32,000 nucleotides of DNA from Candidatus Peribacter riflensis. GTDB lineage: Bacteria; Patescibacteriota; Gracilibacteria; Peribacterales; Peribacteraceae. The position numbers and the translations under genes were made by a program. The stretch covers positions 420,001 through 452,000 of the forward strand of contig CP013062.1 of NCBI GenBank assembly GCA_001430755.1. The letters are read 5' to 3'. Shown here one piece after another: positions 3,746-32,000 of this stretch (position 1 is the first letter of the stretch; every line of letters begins with the position of its first letter). Below the pieces are notes generated by a model, which was given only the letters and a program-made list of their open reading frames with translations, did no database searches and was not told the DNA's origin.

Positions 3746-4639
3746 CTAAAATCCCAGTGACGAGAACGGGAAGAAGATGGAGTTCCAGTCGAAGACCGGT
3801 CGCACGATGTAGAGCGGCGTCTCGATGGCGCGAGGGAACATGAAGAAGATGGAATTCGTTGTGGTCTCTTTGATCGTGCATTGATTGCTGCAGTACTCGT
3901 GGCTGTTCCAGGCCCACTGCAGGTCGCTCACGGCGGGATAGCTCGTGCCCTCCAGCACGTACTCGATGTTGTCACACTCCTCATTGATCGTCTTGCCGCT
4001 GACCGGATCATTGAAGTTGTCATCCACATGCCCGTTTCCGCAGGTCGGATAAGTGCAGTCCTTGCGGCACCGGTTCGGGAGGGTATCACTGTTGTTGCCT
4101 CCCCAGTCACACTCTTCGTTCGGTTGCTTCACGTTGTCTCCGCACCATGCAGAAGAAACGCTCGAAGCCGCGCTGCTCGACGCGCTGGACTCCGGGAGGT
4201 CGTTGCAGAGGCCGGTCCGCCGTTGTTCCTCACAGGCCGTCTGATTGTTGGAATACGTACTGAAGAGCTGCACATCGGTTTCCTGGCCGGTGGCGAGACA
4301 GGGCTGGTTTAAGTACAGGCGGGTGCACCGGGCGGTCCTGCCATTCGAAAGACAGCAGAACGAATCATTGGTCTGGACGATAGGATCGTCGGTTTGCTGT
4401 TCCCAGCGGCATGCCGTGCAACGGTAGTACAGGCCATCCTGGAATTTTGTTCCCCCATCACACTCTTCTCCCGTATCGACAGCGCCATTGCCGCACCCGA
4501 CATCAACAATGGCGGATTGCGCAAGCACTTTGAGATCGGGCACCCAGCCAGCATGAAGGCTGGTGAGAAAGAATCCGATGATGATGAATGTCAGAAAGCC
4601 GAGACAGACATCAGAGAGGAAGGATCGTGAGTGATGCAT
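3746..4639 (-). CDS. secreted cysteine-rich repeat protein (CGNG..EECD repeats)
   Basis: Three copies of the CGNGxxDxGEECD-type motif: CGNGAVDTGEECDGG, CGDNVKQPNEECDWGG, CGNGHVDD..INEECDN. Signal peptide from ATG 4639 is MHHSRSFLSDVCLGFLTFIIIGFFLTSLHA. The ORF track's TTG start at 4711 is an alternative. Confidence 0.65.
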   Translation of the reverse strand: MHHSRSFLSDVCLGFLTFIIIGFFLTSLHAGWVPDLKVLAQSAIVDVGCGNGAVDTGEECDGGTKFQDGLYYRCTACRWEQQTDDPIVQTNDSFCCLSNGRTARCTRLYLNQPCLATGQETDVQLFSTYSNNQTACEEQRRTGLCNDLPESSASSSAASSVSSAWCGDNVKQPNEECDWGGNNSDTLPNRCRKDCTYPTCGNGHVDDNFNDPVSGKTINEECDNIEYVLEGTSYPAVSDLQWAWNSHEYCSNQCTIKETTTNSIFFMFPRAIETPLYIVRPVFDWNSIFFPFSSLGF

Positions 4640-7251: not shown

Positions 7252-7273
7252 TTGAGCATTTTCCCCTTCACCT

Positions 7274-9875: not shown

Positions 9876-10880
9876 TCAGAGTTTCTTCCCGACGAATTCC
9901 GCCAGCTCCACGAGCCGGCAGCTGTACCCCCACTCGTTGTCGTACCAAGCCAGGACCTTGGCGAGCGTAGAGCCGATGACCTGTGTTGAGAGTGCGTCCA
10001 CGATGCTTGAGCGGGGATCTTTCTTGTAGTCCATGCTCACAAGCGGACGCTTCTCGACACCCAGAATGCCTTTCATCGGTCCGGCTGCCGCCTTCTCGAA
10101 CGCGGCGTTGATCTCTTCTGCGGTTGCTGTCTTCTTCAGGGTCACCGTGAGGTCCGTGAGGCTGACCGTGGGCGTGGGCACACGCACCGAAATCCCTTTC
10201 ATTTTGCCATTGAGATTGGGCAGGACGAGTCCGATGGCTTTGGCCGCACCCGTCGAGGTGGGAATCATATTGAGAGCCGCTGCACGTGCGCGACGCAGAT
10301 CCTTGTGGGCGACATCCAGAATCACCTGATCGTTCGTATAGCTATGGATGGTCGTCATGAGTCCGTATGCGATACCGAAGGATTCATCCAGCACCTTGGC
10401 CACGGGCGCGAGGGAATTGGTCGTGCAGGAGGCATTGGAGATGATGTGCATCTTCTTCGGGTCGTATGTTGCTTCGTTCACGCCGAGCACGAAGGTACCA
10501 TCAATCTCATCCTTACCCGGCGCGGACAGGATCACCTTCTTCGCTCCGGCCCTGAGATGCAGCCCGGCATCTTCCTTCTTGCAGAACTTGCCAGTGCACT
10601 CGAGGACGATGTCCACCTTCTTTTCTTTGTGAGGAAGCAGCGCGGGGTCTTTTGTCTGCGTGACGGTGATTTTCTTGCCCTTCACCGTCAGCGTTCCGTC
10701 GTTGAACAACGCGCCGCAGTCGTAATGTCCGTAGTTGCTGTCGAATTCCAAAAGGTGCGCAAGCGTGGCTCCGTCGCCCGGATCATTGATGAGGACGACG
10801 TTTAAGTCAGGATGGTTTTCGAGGATCAGGTGCAGCGCCTGGCGGCCGATACGTCCGAATCCGTTAATGGCGATGTTCAT
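9876..10880 (-). CDS. gap: type I glyceraldehyde-3-phosphate dehydrogenase
   Basis: INGFGRIGR, the catalytic SNASCTTNSLAP motif, and C-terminal WYDNEWGYS. Confidence 0.95.
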   Translation of the reverse strand: MNIAINGFGRIGRQALHLILENHPDLNVVLINDPGDGATLAHLLEFDSNYGHYDCGALFNDGTLTVKGKKITVTQTKDPALLPHKEKKVDIVLECTGKFCKKEDAGLHLRAGAKKVILSAPGKDEIDGTFVLGVNEATYDPKKMHIISNASCTTNSLAPVAKVLDESFGIAYGLMTTIHSYTNDQVILDVAHKDLRRARAAALNMIPTSTGAAKAIGLVLPNLNGKMKGISVRVPTPTVSLTDLTVTLKKTATAEEINAAFEKAAAGPMKGILGVEKRPLVSMDYKKDPRSSIVDALSTQVIGSTLAKVLAWYDNEWGYSCRLVELAEFVGKKL

Positions 10881-10904
10881 GGGAGAGGGAGGAAAGCTTG
10901 TTCT

Positions 10905-13326: not shown

Positions 13327-13403
13327 GGGCGAGTAGCTCAGTCGGTTAGAGCACGGGACTTATAAGCCCGCGGTCGGTGGTTCAAATCCACCCTCGCCCA
13401 CCA
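13327..13403 (+). tRNA. tRNA-Ile (anticodon UAU), CCA encoded
   Basis: Hand fold: GGGCGAG TA GCTC AGTCGGTTA GAGC A CGGGA CTTATAA GCCCG CGGTC GGTGG TTCAAAT CCACC CTCGCCC A CCA. The body closely resembles bacterial tRNA-Ile(GAU). The 31:39 position is an A-G mismatch. Confidence 0.8.
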
Positions 13404-13658: not shown

Positions 13659-14516
13659 TTACTGTTGACCGACGTACGCGCGGGCCTTCGTCAGCGGGTC
13701 TTCCGCCCACGGCTGCCCCCGGGACTGCTGGTAGATCGGATTTTCCTCGATCGATCCGATCAATTCCCGCACCATCCCGATGCGGAGCCGGTGGTCCACC
13801 GCGATGTTCATGCGGTGGTAGAGCAGGTTCATGACCAGCCGTTGCACACGCTCGCCTGCTTCGGTGCCTTGGGCATCTGCCATGAGGGCTTCGGCCTCGC
13901 TCAGAGCTGATTCGCTCAGTGCGAAGGCTTCCTGCCATCGGCCGATCTTCTGAAGCAGATCGATCTTCACCATGACAGCGTAGAGCTTGCCGGGGATATC
14001 CCCTGCCTGCTCGGCTTCGTGTGCGGACCGTTCTGCAGCCGTCACGGCCTCCTCGCGGAGTGCATCAGCCTGCTGGTTTAAGGCCATGCACCACTCATAC
14101 GACAGTTTGCTGCGCAGCGCCATCGTCGCCGGAGACGCATGTTGCTGAAGTCTCTCGCCGAGGAGGTTGGCGCAGCGTGCCATCTCTTCGTACTTCTTGT
14201 GGCGTCGTTGCCACTCGGTTGCCAGGAGCAGACTGGGATTGTCCAAGCTCTCCGGACTCTCGGCGGCGATGTCCATGCAGTCGCCGTAGAAGGGACTGTT
14301 GATGAGCGACGCGGCCTGATTGATCCGTCGAATCGCAGGGTGAGTGAGGAGCCGCGGGTAGAAATTCCGCAGCCACTCATCTCTCTCCTCTGTGACTTCT
14401 GACCGATAGGCTTCGTCCACTCTGCTGAGTGGACCGACGAGATCGTCATTTTGCGCAACGCTCTCAAAGAGAGCTGTTACCGCCGCATGGAGCGCGGCTA
14501 AACCTTGGGACGTCAT
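13659..14516 (-). CDS. hypothetical alpha-helical protein, no family recognised
   Basis: 285-aa ORF preceded by the canonical RBS GAAGGAGGTGACGT-ATG. The sequence is helical and Ala/Glu/Leu-rich (possibly TPR-like), with no signal peptide. Confidence 0.7.
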   Translation of the reverse strand: MTSQGLAALHAAVTALFESVAQNDDLVGPLSRVDEAYRSEVTEERDEWLRNFYPRLLTHPAIRRINQAASLINSPFYGDCMDIAAESPESLDNPSLLLATEWQRRHKKYEEMARCANLLGERLQQHASPATMALRSKLSYEWCMALNQQADALREEAVTAAERSAHEAEQAGDIPGKLYAVMVKIDLLQKIGRWQEAFALSESALSEAEALMADAQGTEAGERVQRLVMNLLYHRMNIAVDHRLRIGMVRELIGSIEENPIYQQSRGQPWAEDPLTKARAYVGQQ

Positions 14517-20218: not shown

Positions 20219-20247
20219 GAAAAGAGGGAAGAGAAGTCCTCAAAGCC

Positions 20248-29571: not shown

Positions 29572-30171
29572 GTGCTATGCTTCCCGGCGATGGCTTCCCA
29601 ATTTTTCCGGAAGATGATGGGGTTGGAATTGGAGGAGAAAATCCTCAATGCGGGGGCTGTTGTGGCCATCGTCGGTGTCTTTCTGCCCTGGATCGGCGGC
29701 GAGCAGCTGGGCGGGTCGACCGTGTCCTATTCCGGGTTCGGCTTCTACACCACGATCATCGGTGTCAGCGTCTTCGCCCTGCAGCTCTTCGTGCTGCTCA
29801 TCACCCTGATCCCGCTCACGGGGGGTCCTGTTCTGGTGCGCAAGCGCTACCGCGAAATCGTGCGGCTCTGCGCCACGGCAGAGGCGACGATTCTCATCCT
29901 GGCGGCGCTCTCGGTGCTCATCAAGGTGACCTTGGATCTTGCCCGCATGGAGATCCGTTTCGGTATTTACGTCTCGCTCATCGGCAGTCTCGTCGCCCTG
30001 TTTGAGACATTCCTGCGCTTTCAGGAACAGCGAAAAAGCTTCGTGCAGGAGCTCTTCCGTCATCCGGAGGAGGATGCGCTGCCGGTGGATAAAGAGGAAT
30101 TTTTCGAGGCTCCACCCCCCCCACCCCCTCCGCCGCCCCCTCCGCCCGAGGAGCACCGCATGTACCGGTGA
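29572..30171 (+). CDS. hypothetical 4-TM membrane protein with C-terminal Pro12 tract
   Basis: Four hydrophobic helices, and the C-terminus reads FFEAPPPPPPPPPPPPEEHRMYR. GTG start at 29572, or ATG at 29590. Confidence 0.55.
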   Translation: MLCFPAMASQFFRKMMGLELEEKILNAGAVVAIVGVFLPWIGGEQLGGSTVSYSGFGFYTTIIGVSVFALQLFVLLITLIPLTGGPVLVRKRYREIVRLCATAEATILILAALSVLIKVTLDLARMEIRFGIYVSLIGSLVALFETFLRFQEQRKSFVQELFRHPEEDALPVDKEEFFEAPPPPPPPPPPPPEEHRMYR

Positions 30172-30226: not shown

Positions 30227-30559
30227 ATGCCAGAGTACGCCGATTCCGATTTCTTCTACTTCGACACCGAGAAGCGCGTGATTATCGGGCCGGTGCAGTG
30301 GTCGAAGACCGGCACTGTGCAACCGCTCGAAAAACCGGAGACACCCGGAGAAGGACCCGAGCGCAAGTGGCGGGGCAAGCGGCGCAAGGAGTACTACATC
30401 TGGGGCACCTACCGGTCCCTCAAGCGTCTGTACAACCTGGAGGGCAAGACGAGGCGCGAAGAGAACACGCAGACGCTCGACGAAGCCATGGAGCGCTCGC
30501 TCAAAGAACCCTACTGGAATTCGGCGCCTCCGGTCGAGCAGCCGTTAGCGAGCCAGTGA
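30227..30559 (+). CDS. hypothetical basic protein (110 aa)
   Basis: ORF with balanced composition (KWRGKRRKEYYIWGTYRSLKRLYNLEGKTRRE). A TAGAAT hexamer lies 6 nt upstream of the ATG. The 3' end overlaps the convergent fbp by 15 nt. Confidence 0.45.
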   Translation: MPEYADSDFFYFDTEKRVIIGPVQWSKTGTVQPLEKPETPGEGPERKWRGKRRKEYYIWGTYRSLKRLYNLEGKTRREENTQTLDEAMERSLKEPYWNSAPPVEQPLASQ

Positions 30560-31318
30560 GGCGCAGACGCGGGCCACTTCGTTCTTGGAGCCGATGATCA
30601 GCGGGCAGCGCTGGTCCACGGCAGTGATCGGAATATCCAGAATTTCCTTCTCGCCGTCCGTTGCGGCACCTCCTGCCTGTGCAGCGAGATAGGCGAACGG
30701 GCCGCACTCAAAGGCGTGGCGCAGTTTGCCCTGCGGATACTTCTTGCTCGCAGGGAAGGTGAAGATGCCCTGCCCTTTGCTGAAGATGTGATGGACGTCG
30801 GCGACCAGGCAGCCGGAGTACCGCAGGGTCATCTGCTGCGCCATCCACGATTCCACGATGTCGCGGTATCCGTCGGTCTCGTCGATGCCGCGCAGGTTTC
30901 CCGGGCTGAAGTTCTTGGCGTTGTCGCCGATGCCCAGATGCTCACGGAGCAGGACGAATTCCCCCACATCATTCAAGAGGAATTCGTGCACGCCGCTGCC
31001 CGTGGAGTACACGAACAACGTGCGCGGTCCGTAGAGGACGTAGAGAGCAGCCACCTGTTCGCGCGGGGTGTGCCCGATGATTTCTTTGCCTTCGTAGATG
31101 CCGAAGATGGAACCGATGGCCAGATTGGCATCGACGAGGGAAGAGCCGTCTAAGGGGTCGAACGTAACGGAGTAGGGGGCATCGGGCGAGAGCTCCACGA
31201 CGGTGTCGTGCTCCTCGCAGGCGTAGGAGGCCACGAGGCGATTCTCGGCGAGATGCTCCTGGATGATGCGGTCACTGAGCACATCGAGCTTGACCTGTTC
31301 CTCGCCGAACATGTTCAC
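30545..31318 (-). CDS. fbp: class I fructose-1,6-bisphosphatase (canonical-start ORF; homology continues upstream to about 31460)
   Basis: FDPLDGSSLVDANLAIGSIFGIY, YVLYGPRTLFVYS, LRYSGCLVADVHH and GKLRHAFECGPFAYLAAQAGG. The GTG at 31318 is the first canonical start, but the conserved N-terminal helices are encoded further upstream; see findings. Confidence 0.85.
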   Translation of the reverse strand: MNMFGEEQVKLDVLSDRIIQEHLAENRLVASYACEEHDTVVELSPDAPYSVTFDPLDGSSLVDANLAIGSIFGIYEGKEIIGHTPREQVAALYVLYGPRTLFVYSTGSGVHEFLLNDVGEFVLLREHLGIGDNAKNFSPGNLRGIDETDGYRDIVESWMAQQMTLRYSGCLVADVHHIFSKGQGIFTFPASKKYPQGKLRHAFECGPFAYLAAQAGGAATDGEKEILDIPITAVDQRCPLIIGSKNEVARVCASLAR

Positions 31319-31468
31319 CGATCCCGCGAGGCCGGCCTCTGTCGTCTTGATGGCGTAACTGATGTACTTCGCGGCGCGCGCGAGATCATTGATGAGGTGC
31401 CGCAGCTTGTCGGGTGCCTTGGAAACGTGAAAGAGGTGGCCGTTGAGGCTGCGCTGTTCTGCCGGGAC

Positions 31469-31503
31469 GGAGGGGGAGGGGGTCAGGGGGTGAGGGGGGA
31501 GGG
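31469..31503 (+). repeat. G-run tract (G-quadruplex-capable) between gap2 and fbp
   Basis: gg a ggggg a ggggg tca ggggg tga gggggg a ggg is on the plus strand, so the minus-strand mRNA is C-rich. Confidence 0.8.
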
Positions 31504-31504
31504 A

Positions 31505-32000
31505 TTACCGGAGCAGCGTGCCGACCTGAAGGGTCATCTCCGTCACGCGCATCGCGTAACCCCACTCATTGTCGTACCAGGCGAGTATTTGCACCAGATT
31601 TCCGTCGATGACATTCGTCGAATCCAGATCCACCGTGCTGGAATGCGGATCGCTGAGGTAATCGGATGAGACGAGGAGGCCTTCTTCCACCGCCAGAATG
31701 CCTTTGAGTTCTCCTTCCGACGCCTCGCGGAGCTTGCTGTTGATTTCTGCGGGGCTCGCCGGAGCGTTCAGTTCGAGCACGAGGTAGGCCGCCGAGACAT
31801 CGGGGATCGGAATGCGCAGCGCCATGCCGTCCAATTTTCCTTTGAGGTGCGGGAATACTTTGCCCACTGCTTTGGCAGCACCAGTCGTCGAGGGAATGAT
31901 ATTGAGCGCTGCGGCGCGCGCGATGCGCAGTTTCGAGCTTTCTGTGGCGTTGTCGAGGAGATTTTGGGAGCTGGTGTACGAGTGCGTAGTGCACATGAGG
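31505..32000 (-). CDS. second glyceraldehyde-3-phosphate dehydrogenase paralog (N-terminal part beyond window end)
   Basis: The GAPDH C-terminal domain is present: HSYTSSQNLLD, AAALNIIPSTTGAAKAVGKVFP, LAWYDNEWGYAMR. The frame is open to the window edge. Confidence 0.85.
   Translation of the reverse strand, partial: LMCTTHSYTSSQNLLDNATESSKLRIARAAALNIIPSTTGAAKAVGKVFPHLKGKLDGMALRIPIPDVSAAYLVLELNAPASPAEINSKLREASEGELKGILAVEEGLLVSSDYLSDPHSSTVDLDSTNVIDGNLVQILAWYDNEWGYAMRVTEMTLQVGTLLR

Follow-up and report, generated by a model that had tools for sequence, protein, structure and literature searches.

CTG is an accepted but rare start codon in bacteria. Translation table 11 permits it, and the NCBI annotation pipeline places CTG starts when homology supports them. 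In such genes, one CUG stands where homologues have AUG or GUG, and the product is recognised through its homology. Another non-canonical start is that of E. coli infC, the gene for IF3, which begins with AUU, a deliberately weak start that serves as expression control. Genes of central carbon metabolism can also be joined, and pgk-tpi of Thermotoga maritima is said to be a fusion of glycolytic enzymes. Here, we describe a putative CTG start for fbp, a gene of the class I fructose-bisphosphatase (FBPase) family in Candidatus Peribacter riflensis, a groundwater bacterium of the Peregrinibacteria. The gene lies on the minus strand of a 32,000-nucleotide stretch of contig CP013062.1 (positions 420,001 to 452,000 of the forward strand). 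This whole stretch is called the window, and its coordinates are used throughout. Directly upstream of fbp is gap2, a paralogue of the GAPDH gene. The features of the locus are as follows.

30545 to 31486, minus strand: full-length fbp, class I fructose-bisphosphatase family, 313 codons plus TAA with the putative CTG start; carries PF00316 and PF18913
31484 to 31486, minus strand: CTG, the proposed initiation codon, which aligns with the start codon of orthologues
31319 to 31483, minus strand: 55 codons of the conserved N-terminal region (TPSPSVPAEQRSLNGHLF...AGLAGS), dropped by canonical-start gene calls and covered by Pfam, NCBIfam and PDB alignments
31310 to 31318, minus strand: GTG 31318-31316 and ATG 31312-31310, the first canonical starts, which give the truncated 257-aa and 255-aa calls
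31403 to 31405, minus strand: a further CTG in frame, Leu28 in the 313-aa product; conceivable as a near-cognate start, but a minor alternative
31487 to 31504, minus strand: 18-nt C-rich leader without G, TCCCTCCCCCCTCACCCC, from the gap2 stop to the CTG; intergenic, not a linker
31505 to 32000, minus strand: 3' part of gap2, with its natural TAA stop at 31507-31505

The junction was re-derived from the minus strand of the window, both in coordinates and in translation. The gap2 TAA shares its frame with fbp, and the 62 codons that follow it (31504-31319) read SLPPHPLTPSPSVPAEQRSLNGHLFHVSKAPDKLRHLINDLARAAKYISYAIKTTEAGLAGS, with no stop and no ATG, GTG or TTG. The initial annotation, which was made from the letters of the window, had described this start-less stretch in frame with the gap2 stop, and it was exact in coordinates and translation. 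The first canonical start of fbp is GTG 31318-31316, which opens a 257-aa reading frame. The next one, ATG 31312-31310, is chosen by public gene calls and gives 255 aa. By a hand estimate from the base composition of the strand, the chance of 62 codons without a start or stop is about 1%. A bare start-less open stretch upstream of a gene is not rare in this GC-rich window, as in 4 of the 24 other window genes the first canonical start also follows at least 36 open, start-less codons. Long open extensions precede prmC, nadK, gap1 and one hypothetical gene; these had no family match and mostly overlap neighbouring genes; among the upstream extensions of the other window genes, none that is both start-less and homology-bearing was evident. 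The fbp case is made meaningful by homology and purifying selection over its stretch.

Fifteen distinct orthologous loci were compared with the window, giving 16 loci in all. The CTG at 31486-31484 aligns exactly with the start codon of the relatives, which is ATG in 12 of the 15 and GTG in the other 3. The orthologous FBPases are 312-316 aa long and begin MTPSPSVPAE(Q/L)RSLNGHLF; the more distant ones have a close variant of this sequence. The closest homologues of the fbp product are 84-93% identical to it and have 313-316 aa. The window codes for L-TPSPSVPAEQRSLNGHLF, in which the Leu codon is the CTG itself. In the DNA alignment of the window with its relatives, ACCCCCTCCCC comes after the start codon, and the closer relatives read ACYCCCTCYCC there. 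Reading on from the gap2 stop, no NTG triplet comes before this CTG in any frame. By this alignment, a near-cognate codon occupies the orthologous start, and no canonical start lies upstream of the conserved region. Near-cognate initiation at this CTG was one of several explanations offered in the initial annotation, together with the proposal to compare orthologous gap-fbp junctions. It gained support from that comparison, since the CTG corresponds to the start in all 15 relatives and has been annotated as a start by NCBI. The junction contains a start in 15 of 15 relatives, and none is fused.

GTG is used by the three relatives (L003, L012 and L027) with the most window-like leader, the TAATCCCCTCCCCC type. 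Because of this, a change from GTG to CTG is the most economical history. The alignment points to a mutation of the first base of the fbp start codon, whose ancestral form would have been ATG or GTG and most likely GTG. Among the 16 loci, CTG at this position is confined to the window lineage.

The family models cover the region that canonical-start calls leave out. The product scored 144.4 bits against PF00316 and 126.3 bits against PF18913, both above the gathering cut-offs of 34.8 and 27. The PF00316 alignment, which had been proposed as a check of N-terminal coverage, matches residues 28-187 of the stop-to-stop translation and begins at profile position 15 of 191. In the NCBIfam model NF006783, the CTG-start form has its residue 23 opposite position 22 of 315, whereas the 255-aa form enters only at position 58. 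FBPase homology thus reaches about 57 profile positions upstream of GTG 31318. In the sequence alignment with a solved structure, residue 29 of rabbit FBPase (1bk4) aligns with residue 27 of the CTG-start form. All three alignments agree with the earlier claim that conserved N-terminal homology lies upstream of the canonical start. Homology beginning only at about VNMFGEEQ, or orthologues that function as a short form, would have spoken against that claim. No class-1 FBPase model begins near VNMFGEE, and the naturally short subfamilies, too, start about 30 residues before that point; the short class-1 models NF006784 (279 positions) and NF006782 (280 positions) align with the 313-aa form from its residue 29 onward. 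Judged by these alignments, the N-terminal region, with the helices that precede the NxxGDxxxKLD loop, is complete in the fbp reading frame with a CTG start, and it is needed by the family models and the solved structures.

The substitution pattern was examined for the same region and for the whole gene. Over the 55 codons from the CTG to the GTG, the window and L001 differ by 15 synonymous and no nonsynonymous changes. Comparisons with the relatives gave 15-27 synonymous and 0-4 nonsynonymous differences (pS 0.36-0.65, pN 0-0.033). For the whole gene, mean omega was 0.051 in the window and 0.027-0.058 in the orthologues. At sites that are otherwise invariant, the window fbp shows a single private substitution (I178V), compared to 1-4 in the other orthologues. 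These values indicate that the 55 upstream codons are conserved as coding sequence under strong purifying selection. They also indicate that fbp is without relaxed constraint or decay, so that silencing, if any, would be very recent.

The CTG is almost certainly genuine and positioned at the orthologous start. The junction is identical, base for base, in seven further public DNA records (L011, L017/L019, L020, L021, L024 and L025). These include JGI Ga0156508_102, JGI Ga0208246_1000016 (288 kb), an ENA MEGAHIT contig, the ENA ANAN16 Rifle scaffold and the NCBI third-party-annotated metagenome-assembled genomes (MAGs) DNSX01000010.1 and DOMH01000017.1. The records differ in sample, time point and assembler (IDBA-UD, MEGAHIT, JGI and UBA re-assemblies). 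An eighth record, the partial GenBank protein OGJ79240.1, reads LPPHPLTPSPSV and matches the junction. In the assembly collection, 51 blocks list the 255-aa product, and contigs >1 Mb occur in 6 of these blocks. The five complete Ca. P. riflensis genomes are separate assemblies from five samples, with 14-32x coverage and read-mapping curation, and the published complete genome has 1,248,071 bp and 58.5% GC (PMC4736985). A one-off assembly error at the CTG junction is excluded. The identical public records also speak against a start codon or frameshift hidden from the consensus, which the initial annotation had considered. The Gp_dh_C (PF02800) match of gap2 reaches the last profile position (158 of 158), and for this reason the TAA is taken as the natural end of GAPDH and not a nonsense mutation. 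The gap2 product has 337 aa in the full contig, and the complete gene is visible in L017 and L019. A nonsense mutation or an assembly error, both suggested in the initial annotation, was therefore not borne out. We also considered an indel or frameshift in the C tract that would supply a start. This was rejected, as no ATG, GTG or TTG is found in any frame between the last in-frame Met codon of gap2 and the CTG.

Public annotation of this gene is divided. NCBI records HBH20036.1 and HBU09907.1 annotate a 313-aa product from this CTG, identical to that of the window (MTPSPSVPAEQ...SLAR), so that this fbp is already CTG-annotated in two MAG records. Five complete genomes carry the truncated 255-aa call, of which ALM09809.1, ALM10910.1, ALM12013.1 and ALM13116.1 are identical to the 255-aa product of the window. 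The 257-aa GTG-start product had no match in public assemblies. A candidate second fbp paralogue in the same genome (P0052) was discarded, as P0052 is the syntenic orthologue in another Peregrinibacteria genome.

On this evidence, the CTG is probably used to make the full-length 313-aa enzyme. The two genes, 18 nt apart, would be co-transcribed, because every relative examined has gap2 next to fbp and no promoter-like or terminator-like site was found between them on the minus strand. Ribosomes may bind the unstructured, pyrimidine-rich leader directly, or they may re-initiate once they have terminated at the gap2 UAA. Initiator tRNA would then start at CUG and give a 313-aa enzyme that begins (f)Met-Thr-Pro-Ser-Pro-Ser-Val-Pro. 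The predicted N-terminal peptide of this product is TPSPSVPAEQR, if Met is removed, or (f)MTPSPSVPAEQR. The yield from CUG is probably much lower than that from AUG or GUG, unless start-codon discrimination is looser in this lineage. Initiation at CUG in E. coli is 0.1-3% of that at AUG (bioRxiv 10.1101/063800).

The leader itself is predicted to be largely unpaired and weakly structured (z = +1.3). Pyrimidines make up 11 of its last 12 bases, with one A, as in the leaders of gap1, dnaK and SBP5. Over 25 starts, a mean of 7.7 of the 12 positions from -12 to -1 were pyrimidines, compared to 6.0 +/- 2.0 in random 12-mers. This suggests that the initiation context in Peribacter is pyrimidine-rich and not of the Shine-Dalgarno (SD) type. 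Most gene starts have no GGAGG SD and follow a C/T-rich tract of the kind TTTCCTCCCTCTCCC-ATG; examples are 10881-10900 (gap1, minus strand), 7254-7273 (dnaK) and 20219-20238 (SBP5, minus strand), and L017 also has them. A classic GGAGG-type SD, AAGGAGGTGACGT-ATG, was seen only at 13659-14516 (minus strand).

Other explanations of the junction have to be weighed against use of the CTG. It is very unlikely that the true codon is ATG or GTG and that a recurrent A/G-to-C miscall after a C run affects all Illumina sets. The site does lie within a C-rich tract (CACCCCCTGACCCCC) that is hard to assemble, and two contigs break at this tract in the fbp leader (L011 at 31502, and OGJ79240.1 is partial). 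However, the seven further records, from different samples, time points and assemblers, have the same base, and so do the five genomes that were separately assembled and curated by read mapping. Consensus substitution errors are very rare at a depth of 14-32x. Readthrough of the gap2 TAA, which would produce a GAPDH-FBPase fusion with SLPPHPLTPSPSVP as interdomain linker, is extremely improbable. The initial annotation had raised this with PPHPLTPSPSVP as the linker, and the TAA is indeed in frame here, with an 18-nt spacer without a stop. About one third of spacers would be in frame by chance, however, and neither the frame nor the length is conserved. In the 15 relatives, the spacer from the gap stop to the fbp start ranges from 9 to 132 nt, frames 0, 1 and 2 occur 6, 3 and 6 times, and several spacers hold stops. 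The relatives whose spacers are open and in frame (L001, L005 and L010) still keep their own ATG. No fused homologue was present among the 120 best, which are all 302-331 aa long with only the two FBPase domains and no Gp_dh. No RNA structure or recoding signal was evident at the junction, where the region folds less stably than shuffled sequences (with the z-score given above), and in E. coli termination is strongest at a UAA with U after it. The proposed Pro-rich linker is not one, because it is made up of the unconserved leader and the conserved N-terminus. The six codons after the TAA, translated as SLPPHP, are conserved neither in sequence nor in length, and nothing matches them in relatives. 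The Peribacter enzyme has TPSPSVP as its conserved N-terminal peptide. From this comparison, the in-frame position of the gap2 TAA is a coincidence. The locus resembles pgk-tpi of T. maritima and other glycolytic fusions in having adjacent, same-strand carbon-metabolism genes, which share a frame in this genome. It differs in that the gap2/fbp frame and spacer are unconserved, no fused homologues were found, and GAPDH ends at its natural C-terminus. A readthrough product would span ...GTLLR-X-SLPPHPLTPSPSVPAEQR at the gap2/fbp junction.

Several points weigh against productive use of the CTG. CUG is inefficient in E. coli, where its initiation complexes have lower stability than those on AUG, GUG or UUG (PMC11497404), so expression of fbp could be very low. 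The published metabolic reconstruction of this organism counted no FBPase (PMC4736985). All records of the organism are essentially clonal (100% identical), without within-species polymorphism to date the CTG. With dS ~1.1 to the nearest relatives, synonymous sites are almost saturated, and a very recent loss of function is therefore compatible with the data. These points lead to the explanation that loss of the start recently silenced fbp, or left a truncated 255- or 257-aa product that is probably misfolded, which would make the gene a pseudogene in waiting. We regard this as unlikely. It is favoured by the poor performance of CUG in E. coli, the one well-studied system, by the restriction of CTG to one lineage, by the plausibility of fixation by drift in a clonal population, and by the description of the organism as without gluconeogenesis (PMC4736985). 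On the other side, the 939 nt hold no further lesion, omega and the single private substitution are as low as in the ATG orthologues, and the N-terminal codons show the same excess of synonymous differences. The gene and its synteny with gap have also been kept across Peribacteraceae. Given the absence of lesions, the low omega and the conserved N-terminal codons, silencing could only have happened very late on the branch. Initiation further downstream, for example at CTG 31405-31403 (Leu28) or at ATC (Ile32), would give an enzyme of about 285 aa. The short class-1 subfamilies make such a product conceivable, since NF006784 and NF006782 begin at residue 29 and FBPases without the first ~28 residues exist. 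It is nevertheless highly improbable here: residues 2-27 are strictly conserved in the Peribacter orthologues, with synonymous changes only, and neither downstream codon is a better start than CTG 31486 or has a start-site-like leader. The same codons are conserved sense codons in relatives with an upstream ATG.

Initiation at CTG 31486-31484 can be compared with the known cases. As in other bacterial CTG-start genes, a single CUG replaces the AUG or GUG of homologues. The difference is that this gene encodes a conserved enzyme of central metabolism in an uncultivated host of the candidate phyla radiation, has a pyrimidine-rich leader instead of an SD, and is known here from sequence alone. 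The likeness to infC is that a non-canonical start would be expected to give low expression that is sensitive to discrimination by IF3 (PMC11497404). The AUU of infC, in contrast, is conserved and belongs to an autoregulatory loop. A conserved regulatory role of the fbp CTG is unlikely, because it occurs in one lineage only. A broader possibility is that Peribacter, and perhaps other candidate-phyla-radiation bacteria, initiate mainly at pyrimidine-rich, SD-less sites with relaxed first-base discrimination, so that CUG would be efficient and selectively maintained. This seems quite unlikely. A search for relaxed start-codon discrimination found no initiator tRNA gene in the window or in 17 loci. 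If discrimination were relaxed, canonical-start gene finders would systematically truncate genes here, and reconstructions would miss enzymes such as this FBPase.

The CTG start matters mainly as a correction to annotation and metabolic reconstruction, and it brings no new mechanism. N-terminal domains can be missed when gene calls accept only ATG, GTG and TTG, and fbp would be a clean natural case of a conserved enzyme that starts with CUG. The genome paper lists fructose-1,6-bisphosphatase among the gluconeogenic enzymes "not identified" in Ca. P. riflensis, and the organism is reported to be without phosphofructokinase (PMC4736985). GenBank carries a 255-aa FBPase for the same genomes, and the full 313-aa gene is intact (30545-31486). 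An FBPase or sedoheptulose-1,7-bisphosphatase (SBPase) without phosphofructokinase alters the view of how triose phosphates are routed to hexose and pentose phosphates.

The identity of the enzyme was examined with solved structures and curated models. The product aligns over its full length with class I FBPase and with plant and algal SBPases (5iz3, 7b2o and 1bk4), and the motifs are kept. In the alignment with 1bk4, CEE stands opposite SEE, DPLDGSS is identical, RYSG stands opposite RYVG, and GKLRHAFECGP stands opposite GKLRLLYECNP. We take the motifs EE, DPLDGSS, RYSG and GKLR...E to be catalytic or to bind metal and substrate, after the mammalian enzyme. The best sequence matches among solved structures were the SBPases 5iz3 and 7b2o (E ~5e-58), ahead of FBPases (E ~1e-47). 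The product is therefore nearer to the solved plant and algal SBPases than to class I FBPases. All nine NCBIfam equivalogs (NF006778-NF006786) fell below cut-off, the best being NF006783 with 295.7 bits against 521. By these scores, the product is in the class I FBPase family and in no curated equivalog. Since the SBPase structures match best and the equivalog cut-offs are missed, a preference for fructose-1,6-bisphosphate or sedoheptulose-1,7-bisphosphate is not fixed by the sequence. The enzyme may act on sedoheptulose-1,7-bisphosphate or on both substrates.

The gap2-fbp pairing and the gene order NUDIX, dnaB, MraY-like, gap, fbp are conserved across Peribacteraceae. Nine syntenic genes are listed in both L017 and L022, and 7 of them are no more than 12 residues apart. 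Larger differences are shown by fbp (255 vs 315 aa) and the MraY-like gene (352 vs 440 aa). The latter difference looks lineage-specific rather than the result of a truncated call, because the closer relative L027 also has 352 aa.

Telomere-like tandem repeats lie directly upstream of the fbp ATG in several Peribacteraceae, in the forms (CCCTAA)3-5, CCCTCAT x3 and CCCTAG x3. The gap-fbp spacers that bear repeats are those of L004 (~3900-3965), L014 (~1240-1276), L015, L016, L026 (~150-182), L001 and L012, and an A-rich stretch precedes the repeats.

The C-rich tracts at ~30121-30171 and 31487-31504 are assembly-fragile. At the first of these, a membrane-protein reading frame (29572-30171, plus strand) ends in 12 prolines encoded by a C-rich homopolymer tract, and two MEGAHIT contigs of one assembly stop at 30121 and 30131, at or near it. 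Downstream of fbp, a convergent 110-aa reading frame without a family match (30227-30559, plus strand) overlaps its 3' end by 15 nt; frames of 99 aa (L026) and 122 aa (L022) are called at the same position. The window also holds two GAPDH paralogues within 22 kb, gap2 upstream of fbp and gap1 at 9876-10880 (minus strand, 334 aa), which has a pure C/T leader. At 13327-13403 (plus strand) lies a tRNA-Ile whose anticodon is UAU, an uncommon bacterial way to read AUA.

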